From a virus (taxonomy: Duplodnaviria; Caudoviricetes): a stretch of 50,968 bases of DNA. Positions 39,253-49,456 of the stretch are shown piece after piece. The position numbers and the translations under genes are program-made. The notes beneath the pieces were generated by a model. That model searched no databases and had not been told where the DNA came from. It saw only the letters and a program-made list of their open reading frames with translations. Every line of letters starts with the position of its first letter. The first letter of the stretch is position 1. The stretch is taken from the IMG/VR virus record IMGVR_UViG_3300020711_000014, positions 1-50,968 of that record. The stretch is one strand, 5' to 3'.

Positions 39253-40590
39253 TCACTTTAGCTCTTCAATTGCTATATCGCTAATTGCGCGTTTGTCCGC
39301 CAACGCCGCCCAGATGCGCTCATCAATGGTTTTGTTGGTCAGCAGGATGTAGCACCATACATCTTGTGTTTGTCCGCTGCGATGGAGGCGCCCAATGGTC
39401 TGCTCATACAGCTCCAAACTCCAAGGTAAACTGATAAATACCAGCTTATTGCCGCCATGCTGAAGATTCAAGCCATGACCTGCGGACTTGGGGTGAATTA
39501 GTAGCAACTCGATCTTGCCCGCGTTCCAACGCTCGATAGCGTCTGTATCGTCTAGCGTTACAGCATGTGGATAGCGGCGTTTGAGTTCGGCTAGCTCTTC
39601 CTTGTAGTTATAGACAATCAGCGTATTGGCTCGTTGGTTCTCGGCTAACAGATCATCTAGCAGTTCAAATCTGTGGTCTGAAAACCACACTGGCGTTTGT
39701 TTGATGTCAAATTGACCGGGAATACTAGACGCCGATTTCTCCGTGTAGTAACAAAAGCCAGAAGCCATCTGTTGTAATTTCTGCGTAACTACGGCAGAAT
39801 TGGCAGCTACTACTTTTGCTTCAGGAAATTGATGCACAAAGTCTTTTTTCATTTTCTCGTAGGGTTCGCGATCTGGCAAATCGCAACGTATCTCTACGGT
39901 TCGCAATGGTGGCAACTTATCTTTATATTCACTGGATTCAAGTAAAAATGTCGCAGGGCGAATACGTTGCATTACTGATTCTAACGATCCTAATCTGGGT
40001 TGCCATTCACCAAAATCGCGATTGATACATACAAAGTATTGCTGTAGGAACGCACCCTTGCTTCTGCCTAACAGCTTTTGGTCAACAATTTTGCACTGAC
40101 CAAAGACATCCTCCAAGCCATTGCTGGTAAAGCTGCCCGTCAAACCCCAACGTATTGGTACAAGGTCTAGCACTTTTAACAATGCCTTAAAGCGTGTTCC
40201 CGATGGGTTCTTGAGCTTGGTTAACTCATCAAACACAATACCGTCAAAATCAAGGTATTGTTCAGTGAGCCATTGAATGTTGTCGTAATTAATGACTACA
40301 ACTTGGGACTTACTTCTCAAGGCTTCTAGCCGTTGCTTAGGAGTGCCAATACAAACTGATAAGGATAAACCCTTAGCCCACTTGTCACGCTCTTGTCGCC
40401 ATACATCGGTGCATACGCGCTTGGGGGCTAATACTAACCAACGCTTAACTATTTTGGTGTCAAGCATTTCCTTCATGGCAGTTAAAGCAATCGCGGTTTT
40501 ACCCGCGCCTACTGATGCTAAAATCATCGCCCTATCGTTCTCGTACAAGAAGTCAACGGCTTTTTCTTGATAATCCCTAAGTTTAAGCAT
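39253..40590 (-). CDS. SNF2-family helicase
   Basis: LRDYQ, GAGKT, VFDE, GLTGS, SAGHGLNLQ, QTIGRLHRSGQ. Confidence 0.92.
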   Translation of the reverse strand: MLKLRDYQEKAVDFLYENDRAMILASVGAGKTAIALTAMKEMLDTKIVKRWLVLAPKRVCTDVWRQERDKWAKGLSLSVCIGTPKQRLEALRSKSQVVVINYDNIQWLTEQYLDFDGIVFDELTKLKNPSGTRFKALLKVLDLVPIRWGLTGSFTSNGLEDVFGQCKIVDQKLLGRSKGAFLQQYFVCINRDFGEWQPRLGSLESVMQRIRPATFLLESSEYKDKLPPLRTVEIRCDLPDREPYEKMKKDFVHQFPEAKVVAANSAVVTQKLQQMASGFCYYTEKSASSIPGQFDIKQTPVWFSDHRFELLDDLLAENQRANTLIVYNYKEELAELKRRYPHAVTLDDTDAIERWNAGKIELLLIHPKSAGHGLNLQHGGNKLVFISLPWSLELYEQTIGRLHRSGQTQDVWCYILLTNKTIDERIWAALADKRAISDIAIEELK

Positions 40591-41089
40591 GGCGGGCGTA
40601 TTCTCCATGATATTTATGCCGCGCTTCTTGAGCTACTAAATCTGCTAACTCTAAATCATCAAAATAACCTAAACATCTTTTTCCTGCATCTGTAGATACT
40701 TGAACAATCCATTTTTTATCTCTTGAACACCAATGAACGCCTTTTACGCCAGACTTATTATTGCGATTTATGCCTCGATTCCATAGATTTTGTAGCTTTG
40801 TGGCTGGGCGTAAATTGTCAATATTGTTATTAAGCCTATTTCCATCTATGTGATCTAAAAATTCCGGAACCCATTTATGGTGCATAAAAAATATTAACCG
40901 ATGGCTTAAATAACCTATACCATCAAATTTTATTTTCATATACCCTTGATCGTTTACATGCCCCGCTATATCACCAACTTTAATACAATTACTTCTTGCA
41001 ATTTTCCAGTAAAGCGCTCCATCTTTATATTCAAATAGCTTATGTAAATACTCTAATGGGGGCATGGGTTTGTTACTTTTGCTAGCCAT
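40583..41089 (-). CDS. HNH endonuclease with AP2-like domain (homing-type)
   Basis: HRL..DHIDGNRLNNNIDNLR; SGVKGVHW; LGYFD. Confidence 0.9.
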   Translation of the reverse strand: MASKSNKPMPPLEYLHKLFEYKDGALYWKIARSNCIKVGDIAGHVNDQGYMKIKFDGIGYLSHRLIFFMHHKWVPEFLDHIDGNRLNNNIDNLRPATKLQNLWNRGINRNNKSGVKGVHWCSRDKKWIVQVSTDAGKRCLGYFDDLELADLVAQEARHKYHGEYARHA

Positions 41090-41352
41090 TCGTTAATCTC
41101 CAATTTTGTACTTAAACAGGCGTACCGTTGTTTTAAAGCTACAACATCATCTTTAAATATTTCTTGCATCGGCGACAGGTATCCACCCTTTGGTCGCTTT
41201 AATTCTACAAACCATGTATTGCCATTCGGCATACAAGCAATACGGTCTGAAACGCCGCGTTGTGTTGGTGATTTAAACTTATAGGTCTTTCCACCAATAG
41301 ACTCAACTGACCAAACAAAATACTTTTCTATTTCACGTTCGCGTTCGTTCAT
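41053..41352 (-). CDS. VRR-NUC domain nuclease
   Basis: ERE.E...GVSDRI...FVELK..G.LS..Q. Confidence 0.88.
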   Translation of the reverse strand: MNEREREIEKYFVWSVESIGGKTYKFKSPTQRGVSDRIACMPNGNTWFVELKRPKGGYLSPMQEIFKDDVVALKQRYACLSTKLEINEWLAKVTNPCPH

Positions 41353-41433: not shown

Positions 41434-42558
41434 ATGGCAAAGCATTCAGCAATTGTAGGCGGTTCCACCGCTTCTCGGGTAATCAAATGCCCTGCATCTG
41501 TAGCGCTCTGCGCCAAGATGCCGCCAAAGCCTTCAAGCAAATACGCCGACGAAGGAACATTACTTCACAACGCAATCGCAGAAATTTTAGAAAAAGATTT
41601 AGAGCCAAGCGAAATCATTGGTTTTAAGTACAAAGAACTTGAAGTAACTCACGAATTATTTGCTGACAAAATTATTCCCGCTTTGCGTAGTTTGGATGAA
41701 GTTGATCCTGATTGCGAAATGAAAATAGCAGTCGAGTCAGAAGTAGATTTCGGTGAATATCTTCCCGGTGTATTTGGTTCTGCTGACGTTATTGGGCGCC
41801 TTGGAGATAAAGCAATTGTTCTGGATTGGAAGTTTGGTTCTGGCGTAATCGTTAATGCCGAAGAGAACAATCAAGGTATGTTCTATGCCGCGGCAGCCAT
41901 GCGTACAGAGAAAACCAAGTGGGCATTTGAGAGCGCTAAAGAGATTGAGATCATTATTGTTCAACCTCCAGAGATGCGTCGTTGGGTTACAACTCCCGAG
42001 CGCATCAAAGAGTTTGAACAGCAACTATCTATTGCCGTTAAAGAAGCTGGACGCAAAGACGCACCGATGCAATCAGGTAGCCATTGTCGTTGGTGCGCTG
42101 CGAAGCCTGTTTGCCCCATCATGACCGATTCTGTAGCTCGATCAACACAGATTGCATTGAAAGATCTAAAACCCGATTTGATTGCAACTTATTTGCAACA
42201 AGCCGATGTGCTTGAGGATTGGATTAAAGAGCTGCGTGACTTAGCTCATCAGATGTTGGAAGCGGACGTTAGGGTTCCGGGCTATAAGCTAGTAGCTAAA
42301 AGAGCCATACGCCAATGGGCTGACGAACATGAAGCAGCCATAGCGTTATCGACTAAAGGTATTTCACCTCATAAGCCATTAGAAGTCATTTCTCCTGCAC
42401 AAGCAGAAAAGCTTCTTGGTAAAAGCGGCAAAGACGCAATTAAAGATTTAGTAGTAGCAGTAAGCAGTGGCAGTACGTTGGTACCGGAGAGTGATCCCCG
42501 CCCAGCGGTTTTACAAATCGGCAAGCAACTCACCGCTGCCTTAAACAAACTTAACTAG
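41434..42558 (+). CDS. Cas4-like exonuclease (DUF2800 family)
   Basis: CP.S, A.EGT..H, FGSAD, DWKFG.G, HCRWC....C. Confidence 0.88.
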   Translation: MAKHSAIVGGSTASRVIKCPASVALCAKMPPKPSSKYADEGTLLHNAIAEILEKDLEPSEIIGFKYKELEVTHELFADKIIPALRSLDEVDPDCEMKIAVESEVDFGEYLPGVFGSADVIGRLGDKAIVLDWKFGSGVIVNAEENNQGMFYAAAAMRTEKTKWAFESAKEIEIIIVQPPEMRRWVTTPERIKEFEQQLSIAVKEAGRKDAPMQSGSHCRWCAAKPVCPIMTDSVARSTQIALKDLKPDLIATYLQQADVLEDWIKELRDLAHQMLEADVRVPGYKLVAKRAIRQWADEHEAAIALSTKGISPHKPLEVISPAQAEKLLGKSGKDAIKDLVVAVSSGSTLVPESDPRPAVLQIGKQLTAALNKLN

Positions 42559-42570
42559 GAGCAAAGAGCA

Positions 42571-43245
42571 ATGAGCAATTTAACAACATTTAAAAACGCA
42601 GGTTTACCAGCAGTAGCAGATTTATCCAAGGCTTTGAAGTCTAACTTAGCAACCGTTACCGATGTTGGTACTGTGATTATTAAGATGGACAAGACAGGTC
42701 ATTGGGTATTTGGTTCAGATCAAACTGAAACGCAAGATGGTTCCGAATGGGCTATCAATCCTTTTAGCTTTGTACATGGTTACATCGCTTGGGGCGCGTC
42801 TGAAGTATTGGGTGAGAAGATGGTTCCCATTAATCAACCACTACCTGAACTCGAGCCAGCACCAGCCAATGCTAAAAAAGGTTGGGAAGTACAAGTCGGT
42901 TTAGAAATGAAGTGCATCAATGGTGACGACAAGGGGCTAACAGCTCGTTGGGCAACCACAGCAACCGGCGGCAAACGCGCCATCCAAGCATTGGGTGTTG
43001 AGATTGCCGAGCAGATCGAGAAAGACTCTAGCAAGCCAGTTGCCATCGTTGCATTAGAAACTGAGCATTACACTCACAAGTCTTATGGTAAGGTATACAC
43101 CCCAAAGATTCGTGTAATTCGTTTTGAGTCTATGGAAGTGGAATCAGCTACCGATGCGCCTGAACTTGAGGCACCAGAAGCAGATGAACCAGAAGTAGCA
43201 GCAGCTCCAGCAGCGCCAGTGCGTCGTCGCAGAGCAGCCGTATAA
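42571..43245 (+). CDS. Single-stranded DNA-binding/annealing protein (putative)
   Basis: Position between exonuclease and PolA; HKSYGKVYTP; acidic tail. Confidence 0.6.
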   Translation: MSNLTTFKNAGLPAVADLSKALKSNLATVTDVGTVIIKMDKTGHWVFGSDQTETQDGSEWAINPFSFVHGYIAWGASEVLGEKMVPINQPLPELEPAPANAKKGWEVQVGLEMKCINGDDKGLTARWATTATGGKRAIQALGVEIAEQIEKDSSKPVAIVALETEHYTHKSYGKVYTPKIRVIRFESMEVESATDAPELEAPEADEPEVAAAPAAPVRRRRAAV

Positions 43246-43259
43246 ACTTGTATAAACAC

Positions 43260-43332
43260 GGGGTGAAAGTACTGACACTATTCAGCTCAAGTACTCGAGG
43301 ACGAACGACTAAAAAGACTTGCGAGTAGCCCC
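43260..43332 (+). ncRNA. Structured RNA candidate A (GC clamp plus GAAA/GAGUA loop)
   Basis: GGGGT-GAAA...GAGTA-GCCCC. Confidence 0.5.
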
Positions 43333-43357
43333 ACCTAATTTAACTAGAGGACAAATC

Positions 43358-43561
43358 ATGGTAGACAGATCAAATTTAAACCCGACAGAGCGTCGGCAAA
43401 TCAGCGAAGTAAAGATGGCGATGGTTCGCGCCGCGCAAGTCAATATTAAGAATATTTTCCCAAGTCTTGGCGCCAAGAGCGAAAAAGTGCACCACACTAA
43501 GAGCTTGTCGCATACGCGTAAGGGTTCAGGACGTAAGCACCAGCAAGGTAAAGTAGTATAA
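43358..43561 (+). CDS. Small basic protein MVDRSNL...
   Basis: TAACTAGAGGA cassette before ATG 43358. Confidence 0.7.
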   Translation: MVDRSNLNPTERRQISEVKMAMVRAAQVNIKNIFPSLGAKSEKVHHTKSLSHTRKGSGRKHQQGKVV

Positions 43562-43568
43562 CGATTAC

Positions 43569-43689
43569 GGGGGAAATAATCGGCTCGCGAAAGTGGATAC
43601 ACAAGTAAGCCTTGTCCAAAGCGGGAAGCCTAACATCCTAGGAAAAATGGTTAGGTAGCAAGAGGATAGTAAACCGATTAAAGTACCCC
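43569..43689 (+). ncRNA. Structured RNA candidate B (multibranch)
   Basis: GGGG-GAAA-TAATCGG...CCGATTA-AAGTA-CCCC with internal hairpins. Confidence 0.55.
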
Positions 43690-43712
43690 ACCTAAATTAG
43701 AGGATTAGGATA

Positions 43713-43880
43713 ATGAGATTCATTATTGGATTTATTGCTAGTGCAATTTTATTAACTTTTACATGGTGGCTGGCTGGATATAACTTTGACCAACGAAATA
43801 TTGATGTTGCTTTTGGATTTGGTATGAGTGTAATTCTCAGCTTTATTGCTGGTATGGGTGCGGAAACCACTAAATACTAA
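43713..43880 (+). CDS. Two-TM membrane protein MRFIIGFIAS..., 55 aa
   Basis: Hand translation; AGGA RBS. Not in ORF track. Confidence 0.7.
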   Translation: MRFIIGFIASAILLTFTWWLAGYNFDQRNIDVAFGFGMSVILSFIAGMGAETTKY

Positions 43881-43894
43881 AAAGGATTAGGACA

Positions 43895-44230
43895 ATGATT
43901 GTAGATAACAAAGACGGTACATTTAGTATTAAACGCCTTACTGTATGGGAAATGTCCGCTGACGAAGTAAAGATTTTGCAAGAGCAAAATAAACAGCTTA
44001 AAGAGTTTGTTAAAGCAATATTAGTTCATGGCGGTGACGGCGTTGGTGATTGGGATGGCTATGAATTACAAGAGTTGGCAGTTAAATCAGGGCTGTTTAT
44101 AGAAAAGACAATGACCGAGCCATGTAATTTAGGTAAAGAAGAAACCGAAAGCTGTTTATGCCGCGAGTATTGCTATGGCGAAGAATCGTGGGAATGCTAC
44201 AGAATTAATAGATTCTTGTTGGAGGATTGA
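43895..44230 (+). CDS. Hypothetical protein with Cys cluster
   Basis: DGYELQELAVKSGL...PC...CLC...CYR. Confidence 0.75.
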   Translation: MIVDNKDGTFSIKRLTVWEMSADEVKILQEQNKQLKEFVKAILVHGGDGVGDWDGYELQELAVKSGLFIEKTMTEPCNLGKEETESCLCREYCYGEESWECYRINRFLLED

Positions 44231-46176
44231 TGTCAATTCTTTGGATTGACTTTGAAACCAAGTCCCGTTGTAACTTGTTAACGCGAGGCGTATACAACTA
44301 CGCGCAAGACATCTCTACGGAAGTCTTGTGTATGTCGTATGCGTTTGATGATAACGAAGTTATAACGTGGACGCCTGACATGCCGTTCCCAGAAGAAGTC
44401 ATGCGGCATGAAGGCATGATTTACGCTCACAATGCCGCGTTCGAGCGTCTTATCTTTTGGTATGTCTTGCAGGTCAATTTCAAGCTCGAGCAATTCTATT
44501 GCACCGCTACGCAAGCGCGAGCCAATTGCGCTCCCGGATCATTGGAAGATGTTGGTCGTTTTGCTGGCGCCTCGATGCGGAAGGATTTCAGAGGATCTCA
44601 ACTGGTTCGCGCTCTATCTATTCCGCAATCGGATGGAACATTTAATAATGATCCTGAATTGATGAAAGAAATGATTGAGTACTGCGAGCAGGACGTTCGA
44701 GTGATGCGAAACATTAGCAAACTGATGCGTCCATTATCAAAGGAAGAATTAGATGATTACCATATCAACGAGCGCATTAATGATAAGGGCGTATTGGTCG
44801 ACGTATCACTTGCCCAAGCTGCTATGTTGTACTCGGAAGAAGAGATCGCGGAAGTACAAAAGCTTGTCGTTGAAATTACCGAAGGCGAAATCACCTCTGT
44901 ACGTTCTCCCAAGATGCGGGAGTGGGTTCAGTCGCGGGTTGGTAGCGAAGCGCTCAAGCTCATGGAGAGCTATAAAGAGGGTCGAAAAAAGTATTCAATC
45001 GACAAGAATGTACGAAATACTCTCCTCGCTTTTGCAGACGAAAACCCAGACGAAGTTCCGCCGCATGTAGCCGATGTTATTCAATGTGCCGATGATTTGT
45101 GGGCATCTTCAGTAGCGAAGTTTCAGCGTATGGTGAACTTGGCTGACATCGAGGATCACCGCGTTCGTGGTGCCTTTATGTTTAACGGCGGTTCAGCTAC
45201 GGGAAGGGCTTCTAGCTTTGGGCTACAGGTGCATAACTTTACTCGTAAATGTGCTAAGAACCCTGAAGCTGTTCGCGCTGCGATGGTTAAAGGCGACGAT
45301 ATTGTGCCGCAATATGGTAAAAGAGTGACCGATGTGCTAAAAGGAATGTTGCGTCCAGCGATTGTTCCATCTAAGGGTAAATACTTAGTAGTGGCAGACT
45401 GGGCAGGTATTGAGGCACGATGCAATCCGTGGTTATCTAACAAACCTCAAGCCGAAGAAGTCCTCGATATTTTTAGGACTGGAAAGGATATTTATGTTCG
45501 AGAAGCTGCGGGAATTTTCCATTGTGATGAAGCAGACATTACGCCTGATCGCAGACAGATTGGCAAGGTCGCTATTCTTTCATGTGGTTATGGTGGTGGT
45601 ATTGGTGCTTTTGCTGCGATGGGTCGTAACTATGGTGTGGTTCTACCCGAATCTGACGCCAAGCGAACGGTGGATGCGTGGCGTAGGGCAAACCAGTGGG
45701 CGGTGCATTACTGGCAGGAACTTGAGTCAGCCTATACCCGTGCAATGCGTAATCCGGGTTACGAATTTTCTGCGGGTCGAGTAACTTATCTATATGACAC
45801 ACAACATCTTTGGTACGCACTTCCAAGTGGGCGCGTGTTATGCTATCCATATGCGCGCTTAGATGACGAGGGGATCTCCTACGCCAAAGCAGCGTGGAAA
45901 CCGGCTGCAATGGCTACAGAATGGGCGAGAGCTAGACTCTGGAAAGGGCTTGCTTGCGAGAATATTACGCAAGCTGTTGCCAATGATATTCTCCGCAATT
46001 CGCTACGACGATTAGATAACGTGGTTTTGCACGTTCATGACGAAATAGTTATCGAAACTGATAGTCCAGAAGAAGTAAAATTACAGATGGAAAAAATTAT
46101 GTGCGAGCCACCCGTTTGGGGTCAGGGCTTACCCTTAGACGTAGAAGTAAACATTATGACAAGGTACGGAAAGTAG
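44230..46176 (+). CDS. DNA polymerase family A (APSE/Bcep-type)
   Basis: Exo DFET, HNAAFE, YCEQD; TGR; motif A DWAGIEAR; motif B RQIGKVAILSCGYG; motif C HVHDE. Confidence 0.95.
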   Translation: MSILWIDFETKSRCNLLTRGVYNYAQDISTEVLCMSYAFDDNEVITWTPDMPFPEEVMRHEGMIYAHNAAFERLIFWYVLQVNFKLEQFYCTATQARANCAPGSLEDVGRFAGASMRKDFRGSQLVRALSIPQSDGTFNNDPELMKEMIEYCEQDVRVMRNISKLMRPLSKEELDDYHINERINDKGVLVDVSLAQAAMLYSEEEIAEVQKLVVEITEGEITSVRSPKMREWVQSRVGSEALKLMESYKEGRKKYSIDKNVRNTLLAFADENPDEVPPHVADVIQCADDLWASSVAKFQRMVNLADIEDHRVRGAFMFNGGSATGRASSFGLQVHNFTRKCAKNPEAVRAAMVKGDDIVPQYGKRVTDVLKGMLRPAIVPSKGKYLVVADWAGIEARCNPWLSNKPQAEEVLDIFRTGKDIYVREAAGIFHCDEADITPDRRQIGKVAILSCGYGGGIGAFAAMGRNYGVVLPESDAKRTVDAWRRANQWAVHYWQELESAYTRAMRNPGYEFSAGRVTYLYDTQHLWYALPSGRVLCYPYARLDDEGISYAKAAWKPAAMATEWARARLWKGLACENITQAVANDILRNSLRRLDNVVLHVHDEIVIETDSPEEVKLQMEKIMCEPPVWGQGLPLDVEVNIMTRYGK

Positions 46177-46202
46177 TAAACTGTCCGTCCAATAAAGCGA
46201 AA

Positions 46203-46230
46203 AAGTCTGAACCCTTATGAGATTCAGACT
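46203..46230 (+). promoter_or_regulatory. Hairpin upstream of primase gene
   Basis: AGTCTGAA...TTCAGACT inverted repeat. Confidence 0.45.
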
Positions 46231-46257
46231 ATTTCTAACCAATAACTAGAGGATTAA

Positions 46258-48597
46258 ATGGCTGCCAAAATAATATCACAAATTGACTTTATTGAATATT
46301 TAGCAAAACTCCCAGCAGAAGGTGAAACACTACTTTTAGTTCAGCAAAAGCCTGTTAAGAAAGAAGGTAAACCTGTTCTGCATAACGATGGGACACCGAA
46401 GTACACTTGGTTGCCTTCATTGCCAACTAAGGTAAAACCCGATACCGCGTTGTATGTCAACACGGGTAGTTTTATTATTGATCGCTTCGAAGGCGGCAAG
46501 TTATCGGCGTCATCTGCCAACTGCGAGCATGTGCTGTTTTTGATGTTAGACGACATCGGAACCAAGTCTAAGACACCGCCGTTAGAACCTACATGGAAGA
46601 TCGAAACGTCCCCCGGCAATCAGCAGTGGGGCTACATATTTGACTTTGATAACCAGCCATCCAAGGGTGAGTTCACCGCTGCAATCACCGCTATTGCTGC
46701 CGCTGGATACACCGATGGCGGAGCCACCAATGCAGTGCGTAACGTGCGTGTCCCCGGCTCAATTAACTTGAAGGCTGGTAAAGATAACTTTGCTGCCAAA
46801 TTATTAGAATTTCATGCCGAGCGTGAGTTTACGCTTGAGCAAATCTGCGACGCGCTGGGGGTTGTGCCGAATGATGCAGACACAGCCTCCATGCAGCGTA
46901 TCGCGCTCACCGACGACGGTGACGATGACATCTTGCAGTGGATTTCCGATAACGGCATGTTGCTCGAGAAAGCCAACGGTGCTGGTTGGTACGGTATTGT
47001 TTGCCCTAACAGCGGCGAGCATAGTGATAACAATCCAATGGCTCGCTATCATCCTGTCAATCGCGCGTTCTGCTGCTATCACGAACATTGCCAGACGTTT
47101 GACTCGGCGGCTTACCTCGAGTGGGCAGCAGAGAACGGCGCACCCAAACACCAGCCCGGAGTTCGCTCCGAGCTATTAACAGAAAAGATGGCAAAAGCTT
47201 TAGAGCTCATTACGCCAACGGCTATGTTCTCCGATACTTCCAAAATCATTGCTGAAGTAGAGCGGAAAGAACTAGCAAGAATAGAAAAGGAAGAGTGGTA
47301 TGAGCGATTCGCGTATGTCCAAGATGACGACGCATACTTTGATCTTGTTGAAAGACGGGAGATCTCTCGAGGCACGTTTAACGCAATATTTCGACACATT
47401 AATTGCCGATCAGTTCATACAGGACGCAAGATCGAAGCCTCAGTCTGCTACGATGAGAACAGACAAGCTCACAATGCCAAAGCTGTAGTCGGCATTACCT
47501 ACGCTGCTGGTGAGTCCGTGCTGGTTGGGCGCGAAGGCGACATTTACGGCAATCGTTGGGTTGATGCTAGACCTAACGTCGAGGACGTAGAAGTACAAGA
47601 TATTTCCCTATGGGAAGAGTTGATCGAGCGCCTTGTGCCAGACGAGCATGACCGCAACCACCTGCTTGACATCATGGCGTTCAAGTTGCAGAACCCACAG
47701 ATCAAGATCAACCACGCAGTGTTGCATGTTGGCGATGAAGGTTGCGGTAAGGACACCATGTGGGCGCCGTTTATCTGGTCAGTGTGTGGCGCGCGTTTAA
47801 AGAACCGCGGTTACATGGATAGCGACTCTTTGCACTCGCAGTGGGGTTATGACCTTGAGTCAGAGATCCTGATTATTAATGAGTTGAAAGAACCGGACGC
47901 AGCAGCTCGCCGTGCATTAGCAAACAAACTCAAGCCAATTATTGCGGCGCCACCTGAAATGCTGAACATCAACCGTAAGGGTTTACACCCATACCAAATG
48001 GCTAACAGGCTATTTGTACTGGCATTCTCGAACGAGCAAATTCCCATCAGTTTGGCGTCGCAAGATCGTCGTTGGTTTGCTATCTCATCAAACGCCCCTC
48101 GTATGGAAAACCACGAAGGTAAAGCTATCTGGGATTGGTATTTAGCTGGGGGCTTTGGGCAAATAGCTGCGTTCTTGTGGGATCGCGATGTATCGAAGTT
48201 CAATCCGGGCGCTGTACCGGGCATGACTGAGTTCAAGATGAACTTGATCGAGCATGGTAGGTCAATGGCTGAGTCATTCATTGTGGAAATGCTTCACAAA
48301 CGTACTGGCGAGTTTGCCCGTGGAGTCATTGGCTCACCCTTCCATGTTGTCTGTGACAAGCTAGCGAGCGTAGCGCCATCAGGAACCAAAGTACCCCAAA
48401 GCGCTTTGCTTCACGCACTCAAAGAGGCGGGCTGGATTGACATGGGGCGGATTGCTTCAGCCGACTACCCCAACAAGAAGCATATCTTTGTAGCCCCTGA
48501 TGTGCGGGATCAATACAATAAATCGGAACTTCGGCGTATGATTGAAGTACCACCAGAGCCAAAAGCGGTGGTATTGGATATGAAACGGAGCGCATAA
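46258..48597 (+). CDS. Primase-helicase (RepB-type primase, Zn-binding region, DUF5906/SF3-like helicase)
   Basis: LDD, IETSPGNQQWGY, R.PGS.N; CP...H...C.H.HC; GDEGCGKD; INE; DRRW. Confidence 0.9.
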   Translation: MAAKIISQIDFIEYLAKLPAEGETLLLVQQKPVKKEGKPVLHNDGTPKYTWLPSLPTKVKPDTALYVNTGSFIIDRFEGGKLSASSANCEHVLFLMLDDIGTKSKTPPLEPTWKIETSPGNQQWGYIFDFDNQPSKGEFTAAITAIAAAGYTDGGATNAVRNVRVPGSINLKAGKDNFAAKLLEFHAEREFTLEQICDALGVVPNDADTASMQRIALTDDGDDDILQWISDNGMLLEKANGAGWYGIVCPNSGEHSDNNPMARYHPVNRAFCCYHEHCQTFDSAAYLEWAAENGAPKHQPGVRSELLTEKMAKALELITPTAMFSDTSKIIAEVERKELARIEKEEWYERFAYVQDDDAYFDLVERREISRGTFNAIFRHINCRSVHTGRKIEASVCYDENRQAHNAKAVVGITYAAGESVLVGREGDIYGNRWVDARPNVEDVEVQDISLWEELIERLVPDEHDRNHLLDIMAFKLQNPQIKINHAVLHVGDEGCGKDTMWAPFIWSVCGARLKNRGYMDSDSLHSQWGYDLESEILIINELKEPDAAARRALANKLKPIIAAPPEMLNINRKGLHPYQMANRLFVLAFSNEQIPISLASQDRRWFAISSNAPRMENHEGKAIWDWYLAGGFGQIAAFLWDRDVSKFNPGAVPGMTEFKMNLIEHGRSMAESFIVEMLHKRTGEFARGVIGSPFHVVCDKLASVAPSGTKVPQSALLHALKEAGWIDMGRIASADYPNKKHIFVAPDVRDQYNKSELRRMIEVPPEPKAVVLDMKRSA

Positions 48598-48773
48598 TGA
48601 CTCAAGAAGAACTGTTTGATTTGAGCGAAGAGGCAGGGTTTAATGCACTAGAGATTATCTCTGCCGAACCAGAGCTGATGAAGTTAGCCGAGCTCATTGA
48701 GGGCAGAGCCATTACGCGTTTGCTGTCAGCGCCTGAAGGTTATGTTATGTATACCCCATGTAGGTTACACTAG
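48597..48773 (+). CDS. Hypothetical protein MTQEELFDLS..., 58 aa
   Basis: Hand translation; GGAG RBS; TAATG coupling. Confidence 0.65.
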   Translation: MTQEELFDLSEEAGFNALEIISAEPELMKLAELIEGRAITRLLSAPEGYVMYTPCRLH

Positions 48774-48817
48774 GGTACCTTAAGCGCTTAGGTTTAGCAT
48801 TTTTCGCGGACAATAAT

Positions 48818-48979
48818 ATGAACAAACCAACTCGTAACGATTCTGGAGCCGTGAAGTTTACGCTGTCAAAAGCAGCTAAAGCTTTAGGCACAAAGGGCGG
48901 GCATGTATCCTCCCCTGCCAAAACTCAAGCTGTACAAAAGAATGGTGCCTTGGGCGGACGCCCTACCAAAGCAAAATAG
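48818..48979 (+). CDS. Small basic protein (AAKALGTKGG..S.AK....NG..GGRP), 53 aa
   Basis: Hand translation; KGG/GGRP motif typical of small phage DNA-binding peptides. Confidence 0.7.
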   Translation: MNKPTRNDSGAVKFTLSKAAKALGTKGGHVSSPAKTQAVQKNGALGGRPTKAK

Positions 48980-48987
48980 TCCTCTTA

Positions 48988-49054
48988 GGGGCAAAAGCGG
49001 ATGCTATCAGCCGATTTAGTTCGCGCTTTAATGATAGACGCAGCGAGTAGCCCC
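48988..49054 (+). ncRNA. Structured RNA candidate C, followed by U tract
   Basis: GGGGC-AAAA-GC..TGCTATCA...TGATA..GCAGC-GAGTA-GCCCC. Confidence 0.55.
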
Positions 49055-49061
49055 ACTTTTT

Positions 49062-49186
49062 TGTGTAATTTGTTACACATTGTCAGATTGCAGCGTGGTT
49101 TTTATACCACATGTCGTATAAATACCACACTTTGACCTAAAATCAATGACTTAGCGCGCATTCTTCAAGTTTTACATTAACTTTAC
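49062..49186. promoter_or_regulatory. Cluster of operator-like sites including an IHF consensus
   Basis: TGTGTAA-N4-TTACACA 49062; two GT(G/C)GT...ATACCAC sites; AATCAATGACTTA 49141-49153. Confidence 0.55.
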
Positions 49187-49456
49187 GCAAGCGCGCAAGC
49201 CGCCGCGCCCCGTTTTATAAGGGTTTATAGGGCGCGCCCCTGATACCATAAGGCGCGGGCGCGTATATCGCGCCGGTATATATCCGAATTTTTAAAGGGC
49301 GCAAGGGATCGCGCAAGGCGCGCGGCTTGCGAATAGAGCACGGGGCGCCATTCTCGCCAATAACCCGCGCGCCTGATAACGCGCCCGATATTCGCGACAA
49401 TAGCCCGCCGGATAGCCGCTAGCGTATAGCTAGGGGCTAGGGGCTAATAATAGATA

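Follow-up and report, generated by a model that had tools for sequence, protein, structure and literature searches.

A phage RNA hairpin family in replication modules, with an end resembling those of stable RNAs

The three elements of the window and the family of one of them

What kind of RNA is it that recurs three times in one phage replication operon, each time with the same base and a different interior? The window analyzed here comprises the whole 50,968 bases of an IMG/VR virus record (IMGVR_UViG_3300020711_000014; Duplodnaviria, Caudoviricetes), and the elements in question, A (43260-43335), B (43569-43692), and C (48988-49056), are all intergenic, all on the + strand, and all end in CCCCAC, the pattern common to them being GGGG / RAAA...RAGUA / CCCC-ACC. 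A preliminary description, made from the letters of the window alone, regarded them as a single family with a common scaffold and variable interiors; its sequences of the three elements, the common CCCCAC end, the CTAA and ribosome-binding site after A and B, and the U tract after C all read as described. We find that a large phage RNA family exists with C as a canonical member, and that A, B, and C do not belong to it on an equal footing.

The two ends of C (GGGGC-AAAA-GC...GC-GAGTA-GCCCC-AC) form an irregular hairpin. Its basal helix, P1, pairs 48988-48992 with 49050-49054; loop 1 sets AAAA (48993-48996) opposite GAGTA (49045-49049); P2 pairs GC (48997-48998) with GC (49043-49044); and loop 2 sets GGAT (48999-49002) opposite GCA (49040-49042). 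Above loop 2, G49003 pairs with C49039, A49038 is bulged, and P3 (49004-49009 paired with 49032-49037) carries the apex (49010-49031). The tail is AC and the next base is T, the first of a TTTTTT tract (49057-49062, + strand) that begins 2 nucleotides (nt) past the clamp, right behind the AC tail. Element A (GGGGT-GAAA-GTA...TGC-GAGTA-GCCCC-ACC) is a base-only variant, in which a GGGGT/GCCCC clamp, a GAAA/GAGTA loop, and an ACC tail surround an interior that we call type A, ACACTATTCAGCTC...GACTAAAAAGACT. Element B (GGGG(G)-GAAA-TAATCGG...CCGATTA-AAGTA-CCCC-ACC) ends in an ACC tail like A; its GGGG/CCCC clamp is followed by a GAAA/AAGTA loop and by the 7-bp stem TAATCGG/CCGATTA, above which lie ~90 nt of interior.

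A regular expression for the shared base finds exactly these three sites when both strands of the window are scanned, and none in 300 first-order Markov simulated windows; a narrower pattern was found in none of 100 shuffles. On the + strand, single-sequence folding is better than in shuffles for B (z -2.69) and C (z -2.65), and on the − strand the advantage is weaker for B and absent for C. Loop 1 of all three elements is a candidate loop E (bulged-G, sarcin-ricin) motif, with AGUA opposite GAA between two Watson-Crick helices (GAAA/GAGTA in A, GAAA/AAGTA in B, AAAA/GAGTA in C), a signature that the preliminary description had pointed out and that relatives of C conserve. The likeness is at the level of sequence. 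Unlike the known motif, the loop here would stand in an mRNA hairpin, 5 bp away from its end and beside a second conserved loop (GGAU/GCA), and it is replaceable by a plain stem.

Relatives were collected from viral contigs. A scan with the 3′ 14-mer of C gave at least 119 loci; of those listed, 40 also have GGGG-N-RAAR upstream, and almost all of these read GGGGYRAAAGCGGATGC. A second scan used the 5′ half alone (GGGGNNAAAGCGGATGC), which removes the bias of the 3′ anchor, and gave at least 120 loci. Of the 120 listed, 110 also contain the 3′ half that fits it, ...G(A)CGCAGCGAGTA(N)CCCC(C); these comprise 98 different sequences. When the same 5′ pattern was run against one genome per bacterial and archaeal species, the 3′ half was present in 0 of the 120 matches listed, prophage copies being possible. 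The totals of all three scans are lower bounds, so the family is larger than counted here and its absence from bacteria is not proven.

The scaffold consensus is GGGGG-GAAA-GC-GGAU-G[stem + variable apex]C-GCA-GC-GAGUA-CCCCC-ACC. It starts with a 5-bp G-C clamp (P1), followed by loop 1 (GAAA opposite GAGUA), a 2-bp GC/GC helix (P2), and loop 2 (GGAU opposite GCA or GUA), after which a G pairs with C or U, with an optional bulged A. On top are the variable stem P3 and an apex of 5-93 nt; the shortest members are only 44 nt long. Loop 1 is GAAA/GAGUA in 87/94 relatives and AAAA/GAGUA in 7/94, the AGTA part having been imposed by the search expression. A covariance model, R1, built from 23 sequences with a hand-set structure, matches 91 of the first 100 of the 120 5′-anchored loci at E ≤ 0.001. 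In the window it scores C at 74.8 bits (E 8e-16; C belongs to the model seed) and A at 26.2 bits (E 2.7e-4), where the alignment covers the base alone, and it does not detect B at E ≤ 10. Thus, the idea of one family for all three survives for C, applies to the base module of A, and is not borne out by R1 for B.

In an alignment that was fitted to R1 and consists of related sequences, so that the numbers lean toward the structure, 91.9% of the paired cells are filled by pairs compared with 84.6% in shuffles, and the covariation score is 0.224 compared with 0.111 (0 of 500 shuffles reach 0.224), dropping to 0.013-0.040 when the partners are slid. The fold rests more firmly on the slid controls and on the compensatory pair types than on the other figures. 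The first P1 pair is GC in 82/82 sequences, the fifth and last is GC in 65, UG in 10, CG in 7, and UA in one, and the P3 pairs have changed on both sides in 7-22 sequences each. G-U stands at one pair in 42/84 sequences and at two others in 10 and 11; because these are mismatches on the opposite strand, the fold is strand-specific and acts as RNA. The common scaffold with a variable interior that had been postulated is therefore upheld for C, by hundreds of relatives and by the covariation among the phage loci found.

No described RNA corresponds to the element in the resources searched. The preliminary description had conceded that a strong Rfam hit would remove novelty, and no family matched A, B, or C: Rfam 15 gives no match in the whole window at gathering thresholds, none at E ≤ 5 over A and B or over C, and no family at threshold on the elements of 18 relatives. 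Apart from two alignments to the tRNA family RF00005 (below), the only sub-threshold overlap with an element of a relative is H19_2, which lies partly over that of locus L187 and is a chance match (16.8 bits vs. a threshold of 50, E 0.88); all remaining matches fell outside the elements. Identity with 4.5S or signal recognition particle (SRP) RNA was rejected, as no SRP model matches any element and the sole Plant_SRP match (L335, 23 bits vs. 105) lies outside the element. ARAGORN reports no tRNA or tmRNA in the window and none in the loci of 13 relatives. BLAST of two minimal elements against 50,697 GenBank phage records recovered only MW202462.1 and MW202544.1, both metagenome-assembled, plus 16 chance matches inside genes, and in MW202462.1 the element is unannotated. 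Full-text literature searches by motif string and by topic returned no description of such an element; the motif may be among the 8,495 unnamed IMG/VR RNA candidates mentioned in a part of PMC10690425. What we describe is probably an mRNA 3′ hairpin with an end like that of stable RNAs, and it is undescribed in Rfam 15, in the MW202462.1 annotation, and in the literature searched. Other full records contain exactly one canonical copy (4/5) or none (1/5), so the trio in the window is unusual.

Most apices are unrelated hairpins, and tRNA-like cargo is the exception (~8%). A T-arm-like hairpin occurs in 6/115 apices, compared with 0.33 in shuffles (maximum 2), and the apices of L338 and L369 align end to end with RF00005, their scores (27.7 and 25.9 bits) falling just short of the threshold of 29; in these alignments, the conserved GAUGCUG...CAGUG-CA replaces the acceptor stem. 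Apices with D-arm and T-arm sequences are those of L338 (597-696), L369 (522-621), L352 (487-621), L426, L404, and L429. Read in this way, the scaffold would behave like an extended acceptor arm, that is, a 13-bp extension of the acceptor stem. We rejected tRNA or tmRNA identity as such, because ARAGORN calls none and the RF00005 matches are sub-threshold and confined to the L338 and L369 apices.

Position, tail, and neighboring genes

Position was counted in the 96 distinct elements of the 5′-anchored set. A same-strand open reading frame (ORF) of at least 40 amino acids (aa) ends upstream of 95/96, and the gap from its stop codon to the first G of the clamp (G1) is 5-8 nt in 78/95, 4 or 9 nt in 7/95, and 0-3 nt in 3/95. 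In the window, the gap is 14 nt for A, 7 nt for B, and 8 nt for C (after the ORFs 42571-43245, 43358-43561, and 48818-48979, respectively). The upstream stop codon is TAA in 73 cases, TGA in 21, and TAG in one, compared with a background of TAA 347, TGA 367, and TAG 133 in long ORFs of related loci. The ribosomal mRNA helicase sits ~11 nt from the P site, and 5 nt would therefore be the shortest gap that spares the clamp from a ribosome standing on the stop codon. Gaps of 5, 6, 7, and 8 nt are all common and no frame is kept, on which ground we discarded a stimulator of stop-codon readthrough or frameshifting.

The flanks are equally regular. The four bases before G1 are A/T-rich, up to position −1, which is C in 72, A in 12, T in 10, and G in none (n = 94). 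Past P1 the tail is A in 91, C in 92, and C in 91 of 94, and the base past ACC is T in 61, C in 27, A in 6, and never G (n = 94), with a G-poor stretch next. These features would suit a tRNA-type acceptor end: a G1-C pair, an unpaired purine-C-C (ACC in A and B, AC-T in C), and an unpaired position −1. Three further candidates were rejected: a small ORF starting at an ATG inside GCGGATGC (apex lengths take every value modulo 3), a promoter of its own built from the stop codon (it would sit only ~2 nt from G1), and docking loops like those of the hairpin ribozyme (the loops are only 2 bp apart).

Which genes precede the element was surveyed with 99 distinct upstream proteins. Families of single-stranded DNA-binding protein (SSB) of four kinds make up 24 of them (phrog_6015/2300, 7; phrog_18154/7364, 6; the Gp2.5-like phrog_112, 7; and phrog_9528, the Enc34-like type of the window, 4). 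Another 17 belong to phrog_27714/23155, function unassigned, five are Gam, exonuclease, or RecT, 11 are of other families (helicase, kinase, and phosphofructokinase-like, one each, and eight of unknown function), none is of a family annotated as structural or lysis, and 42 are without a match. The commonest upstream neighbor, phrog_27714, has at least 4,981 relatives, all labeled hypothetical (e.g., L442, 1824-2798, − strand). In these 320-aa proteins, a Cys-rich N-terminal region (four Cys are conserved) is joined by an Ala/Pro/Lys-rich linker to what is mostly an acidic tip, DWDDE or similar, a layout that may be SSB-like, the identity as an SSB being unconfirmed; there is no Pfam match, no PDB sequence match, and no informative Atlas family, and the AlphaFold model has a pLDDT of 38. 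A complete 56.8-kb phage has the order DUF2800 exonuclease, Enc34-type SSB (PF10991, 4e-43), element, small gene, and polymerase, which is the order of the window at A.

Downstream, a U tract stands behind 14/96 elements and a separate terminator hairpin behind ~9, and 11/96 have no co-directional ORF within 120 nt. An ordinary Shine-Dalgarno (SD) sequence and start codon follow at 15-60 nt in 43/85, and in 26/85 the start lies 6-14 nt past the helix with no SD between. Ten of these 26 (10/85 relatives) have AAGGAG 4 nt 5′ of G1 and an SD-less ATG 7-13 nt 3′ of the hairpin, an association with a Fisher p of 4.7e-4, although the 10 share one gene cassette and are not independent. Such split sites imply that the hairpin is folded in the intact message, where it brings SD and AUG together across its base. 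The T4 genes 38 and 25 likewise have split ribosome-binding sites, with SD and start separated by a hairpin (as outlined in a part of PMC3014915). No split site is present at A, B, or C. Behind A and B, which have no U tract, the SD comes after the hairpin (CTAA, then a GAGGA SD sequence and an ATG, at 43358 for A and 43713 for B), and C has no gene downstream to start.

The U tract behind C makes it likely that C is the intrinsic terminator of the + strand replication operon, which C closes, as the genes past it run on the − strand. Here a 5-bp G-C clamp precedes AC and six U at a convergent gene junction; a simple terminator scan did not list C, because it allows loops of at most 8 nt. Overall, the suggestion of a processing or stability element, raised in the preliminary description, fits a context in which the elements come directly after stop codons, carry an ACC tail, and often stand at transcript ends.

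What the hairpin may do

Around the observed family, its fold, its strand, its rules of position, and its conserved tail, we tentatively build the following reading, which we hold with less than even confidence: the element is a cis-acting 3′-end protecting hairpin, with a terminus like that of tRNA or 4.5S RNA, for the upstream (mostly SSB) message. It would occupy the 3′ untranslated or intercistronic space of the replication operon, as near to the stop codon as a terminating ribosome allows without melting it. Its 5-bp G-C clamp and unpaired ACC would amount to the same terminal design as in tRNA and Escherichia coli 4.5S RNA. A 3′ end would be made by termination in the case of C and, for A, B, and most relatives, by endonuclease cleavage within the G-poor flank, and 3′ exonucleases would trim back and halt at ...CCCC-ACC, so that the upstream message, most often for an SSB needed in bulk, would outlive the downstream enzyme cistrons. 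The sarcin-ricin-type loop GAAA/GAGUA and the GGAU/GCA loop would turn the helix into an irregular rod of some rigidity; their role may be to shield more than 20 bp of helix from RNase III, to add stiffness, or to offer a binding site to a host factor, and the apex would tolerate any insertion. What goes beyond observation here, and is inferred, is that the hairpin protects the 3′ end, that the cistrons differ in stability, and what the loops do.

The reasoning behind 3′-end protection combines the clamp, the ACC, the G-free flanks, the fixed stop register, and the frequent location at transcript ends with the end rules of E. coli stable RNAs. The latter, according to passages of PMC3439924, have paired ends with a 3′ overhang of 1-4 nt, a CC in that overhang halts RNase T, and in 4.5S RNA the overhang is the 4-nt ACCC. 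Also, passages of PMC3014915 name the gene 32 (SSB) mRNA as the most stable T4 message. Like tRNA acceptor ends and 4.5S RNA, the element has a G-C-rich terminal helix from G1 and a short unpaired A-C-C; unlike them, it is embedded in mRNA, has neither an SRP domain IV nor a cloverleaf, and does not encode the terminal A of CCA.

Several facts weigh against this reading. Stability and processing are purely inferred, no transcript ends having been seen, and the exonuclease rules are those of E. coli, which may not be those of the hosts of these phages. About 70 of 80 loci with the same SSB gene are without a canonical element, and the counts stem from related contigs rather than independent events. 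Within the window, A folds no better than shuffles on either strand (z -1.01 on the + strand), and A and B precede ordinary ribosome-binding sites and genes, not transcript ends. A generic exonuclease barrier needs no near-invariant loops across phages with unrelated SSB families. Such loops point to a specific partner or a tertiary fold that 3′-end protection does not name, and it is because they are left unexplained that our confidence goes no further. They imply a partner or fold beyond those known, and it is quite possible that something new lies behind their conservation.

Could the element instead be released from the message? We think it unlikely that it is a processed, stable small RNA (sRNA) on a platform like tRNA or 4.5S RNA, cut by RNase P 5′ of G1 and trimmed to ACC, maybe with an A added, the freed rod acting in trans (e.g., as a decoy for a host factor that binds the sarcin-ricin loop or tRNA) with the apex as exchangeable cargo. 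The ends do match the determinants of RNase P and of stable RNAs (G1-C invariant, −1 never G, unpaired A/G-C-C), in keeping with the dependence of RNase P cleavage on the 3′ RCCA motif and residue N−1 that a section of PMC12710915 describes. The tRNA-like apices and the T-arm hairpins also speak for it, as do the 44-nt minimal members, which show the scaffold alone to be the functional unit. However, a cut at G1 would destroy the split ribosome-binding site of 10/85 relatives and leave the 3′ end of the SSB message unprotected, ARAGORN finds no tRNA or tmRNA, and the element has no known partner. The discrete sRNA of the preliminary description, if taken to have a promoter of its own, finds no support: no promoter is evident, and the elements share the orientation of the flanking genes and adjoin them directly. 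For the protein decoy or antitoxin-like roles raised there, nothing speaks for or against. More ambitious, and distinctly unlikely in our estimate, is a scaffold that serves as a natural phage “RNA expression platform.” The enzymes with which the host matures its tRNAs would free it from the replication operon as a nuclease-resistant rod ending like a tRNA. This rod would present a sarcin-ricin-type loop and a replaceable cargo at the apex (in some members a tRNA-like domain), and its target in trans would be a host factor of translation, RNA decay, or defense.

The next start codon, rather than the RNA end, would be the target if the element served translational control or coupling. Hairpin and G-poor flank might form an operator where excess SSB or another factor covers the next ribosome-binding site, or the hairpin might bridge SD and start codon and so couple both cistrons. 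The element does sit after SSB genes of several families, its G-depleted, A/U/C-rich 3′ flank runs into the next start, and both the split sites and the SD-less starts near the helix would be expected; in T4, the gene 32 operator is a structured element plus an A+U-rich stretch over the ribosome-binding site (as summarized in a part of PMC3014915). Nevertheless, we consider this improbable: the same loops stand beside unrelated SSB families, which makes a specific SSB-RNA fit unlikely, a quarter or more of the elements, C included, have no downstream gene to control, and the distance to the next start varies from 6 to >60 nt, whereas the gap behind the preceding stop codon stays constant.

A selfish or mobile intergenic hairpin, akin to repetitive extragenic palindromes (REP) or miniature inverted-repeat transposable elements (MITE) and without function for the phage, would account for a near-identical scaffold in many gene contexts, for the exchange of modules (A being an L010-like interior on a loop-E base), for the arrival of B with an inserted cassette, and for a patchy presence among relatives (9/80). 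Such an origin is nonetheless very improbable, given that the stems are kept by compensatory changes, the site is strict (5-8 nt past the stop, mostly after SSB genes), a genome usually carries a single copy, and no terminal inverted repeats or target duplications were seen. A DNA-level signal, such as a single-strand replication hairpin for priming or initiation among the SSB, primase, and polymerase genes, agrees with the replication module found in all annotated contexts but is hardly credible, as the frequent G-U pairs would be A-C mismatches on the other strand and are weak in DNA, the loop motif is one that characterizes RNA, several apices resemble tRNA, and the fixed stop register and split ribosome-binding sites argue for action in mRNA.

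Returning to 3′-end protection, comparable arrangements exist. The early RNase III sites of T7 are intercistronic hairpins for stabilization and processing. In plant mitochondria, tRNA-like t-elements form mRNA ends (in the account of them in a part of PMC1920247). Like these, the element is structured, lies between cistrons, would define mRNA ends, and is partly tRNA-like; unlike these, with which it has no sequence relation, its scaffold is conserved in sequence across many phage groups. YrlA, a bacterial and phage Y RNA-like RNA, is modular as well, with a stem formed by its ends that contains conserved irregularities, and a tRNA-like domain. The irregular stem formed by both ends, the modularity, and the tRNA-like domain of some members are shared with it; the lack of an Rfam match, the predominance of apices that are not tRNA-like, and the embedding in an operon are not. 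As with the T4 gene 32, 38, and 25 mRNAs, there is a special RNA structure on an SSB message and, in 10/85, a hairpin between SD and AUG, but the T4 gene 32 operator is a 5′ pseudoknot and the element a 3′ hairpin.

The motif is abundant (110 of the 120 matches listed are true), sharply defined, and absent from Rfam 15. Being tied to the 3′ side of several unrelated SSB gene families, it would point to a general solution for SSB dosage in replication modules. The 44-nt minimal form, the insertion-tolerant apex, and the tRNA/4.5S-like end are directly testable, and the element may serve as a stabilizing RNA scaffold.

Variants at the sites of A and B, and the genes of the window

The site after the SSB gene, that of A, was compared in 80 related loci. 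Canonical elements are there in five (L030, L037, L038, L054, and L067), and ~29 of the 80 have no gap (≤14 nt between the genes). Ten loci have a type-A element, GGGGYUAG...ACACUAUUCAGCUC...GACUAAAAAGACU...CUARCCCC-RCC, with the RCC tail in 10/10 (e.g., L003, 896-973; L007, 7672-7749; L010, 6072-6147; L062, 7669-7744; L075, 3884-3965). Nine of these (L003-L005, L007, L009-L011, L020, and L062) have a plain GGGGYTAG/CTARCCCC stem, whereas L075 has a GAA/AGTA loop base similar to that of A in the window. The closing stem of type A covaries (UG 3, UA 3, CG 3), and the interior is conserved but not clearly paired. Element A is the L010-type interior, nearly unchanged, on a GGGGU-GAAAG / CGAGUA-GCCCC base in place of the plain stem; the occurrence of this interior on either base means that the loop-E base and the plain stem are interchangeable. 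What is kept in every version is GGGG/CCCC followed by purine-C-C. Other long structured inserts occupy the site in L016, L033, L049, and L070. At the site of C in L003, L004, L005, L007, and L011, the elements also precede T tracts.

Just after the SSB gene of L040 and L046, the GAAAG...CGAGUAG module stands on another, weaker G+C-rich base, with no GGGG/CCCC-ACC clamp. This hairpin runs directly into the start codon, and one of the two has a UGCAA apical loop.

Element B, an orphan variant, borders a cassette of two genes that has been inserted here. Compared with the closest relatives, L003-L005, the stretch 43562-44226 (+ strand) is an insertion that comprises B, a hydrophobic 55-aa ORF (43713-43880, + strand), and a 111-aa ORF (43895-44230, + strand); in those loci, the 67-aa gene directly abuts the polymerase start, MSILW. 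A search for relatives of B with a 16-nt anchor gave eight matches, all by chance, and no B-like element lies beside the homologs of the 111-aa protein in three other viral contigs. The polymerase ORF of the window apparently starts at a TTG (44227-44230; LMSILW...) that overlaps the stop of the inserted 111-aa ORF, whereas the polymerase protein of the relatives starts at ATG (MSILW).

The genes around the elements are those of a replication module on the + strand. A DUF2800 PD-(D/E)XK exonuclease (41434-42558) precedes a homolog of the Enc34/DUF2815-type single-stranded DNA-binding proteins (42571-43245), directly upstream of A, which matches phrog_9528 and for which 594 relatives were found. 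The window's own protein has no Pfam match; the product of the syntenic gene in L445 matches PF10991 (Enc34_ssDNA-bd, 4e-43) and the Gp2.5-like SSB family phrog_112. Between A and B lies the gene for a 67-aa basic protein (43358-43561) that matched no family and is kept in L003-L005. Past the inserted cassette come a family A DNA polymerase (44227-46176), a primase-like DUF5906 protein (46258-48597), a small ORF (48597-48773), and, upstream of C, the gene for a 53-aa basic protein (48818-48979) that matched no family and whose TAG stop lies 8 nt before C.

Two further features flank this module. Just past C, at the convergent junction (49170-49300), G+C-only boxes (GCGCGC, GGGCGCGCCCC, and GGCGCGGGCGCG) alternate with A+T-rich spacers and look like a binding-site set or an origin-like region. 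On the other side (40583-41352, − strand), two endonuclease ORFs, one of HNH/AP2 type (phrog_99) and the other a 99-aa fragment-like ORF of phrog_93, lie between an SNF2-type helicase gene and the divergent start of the replication operon, and may represent a homing-endonuclease insertion.

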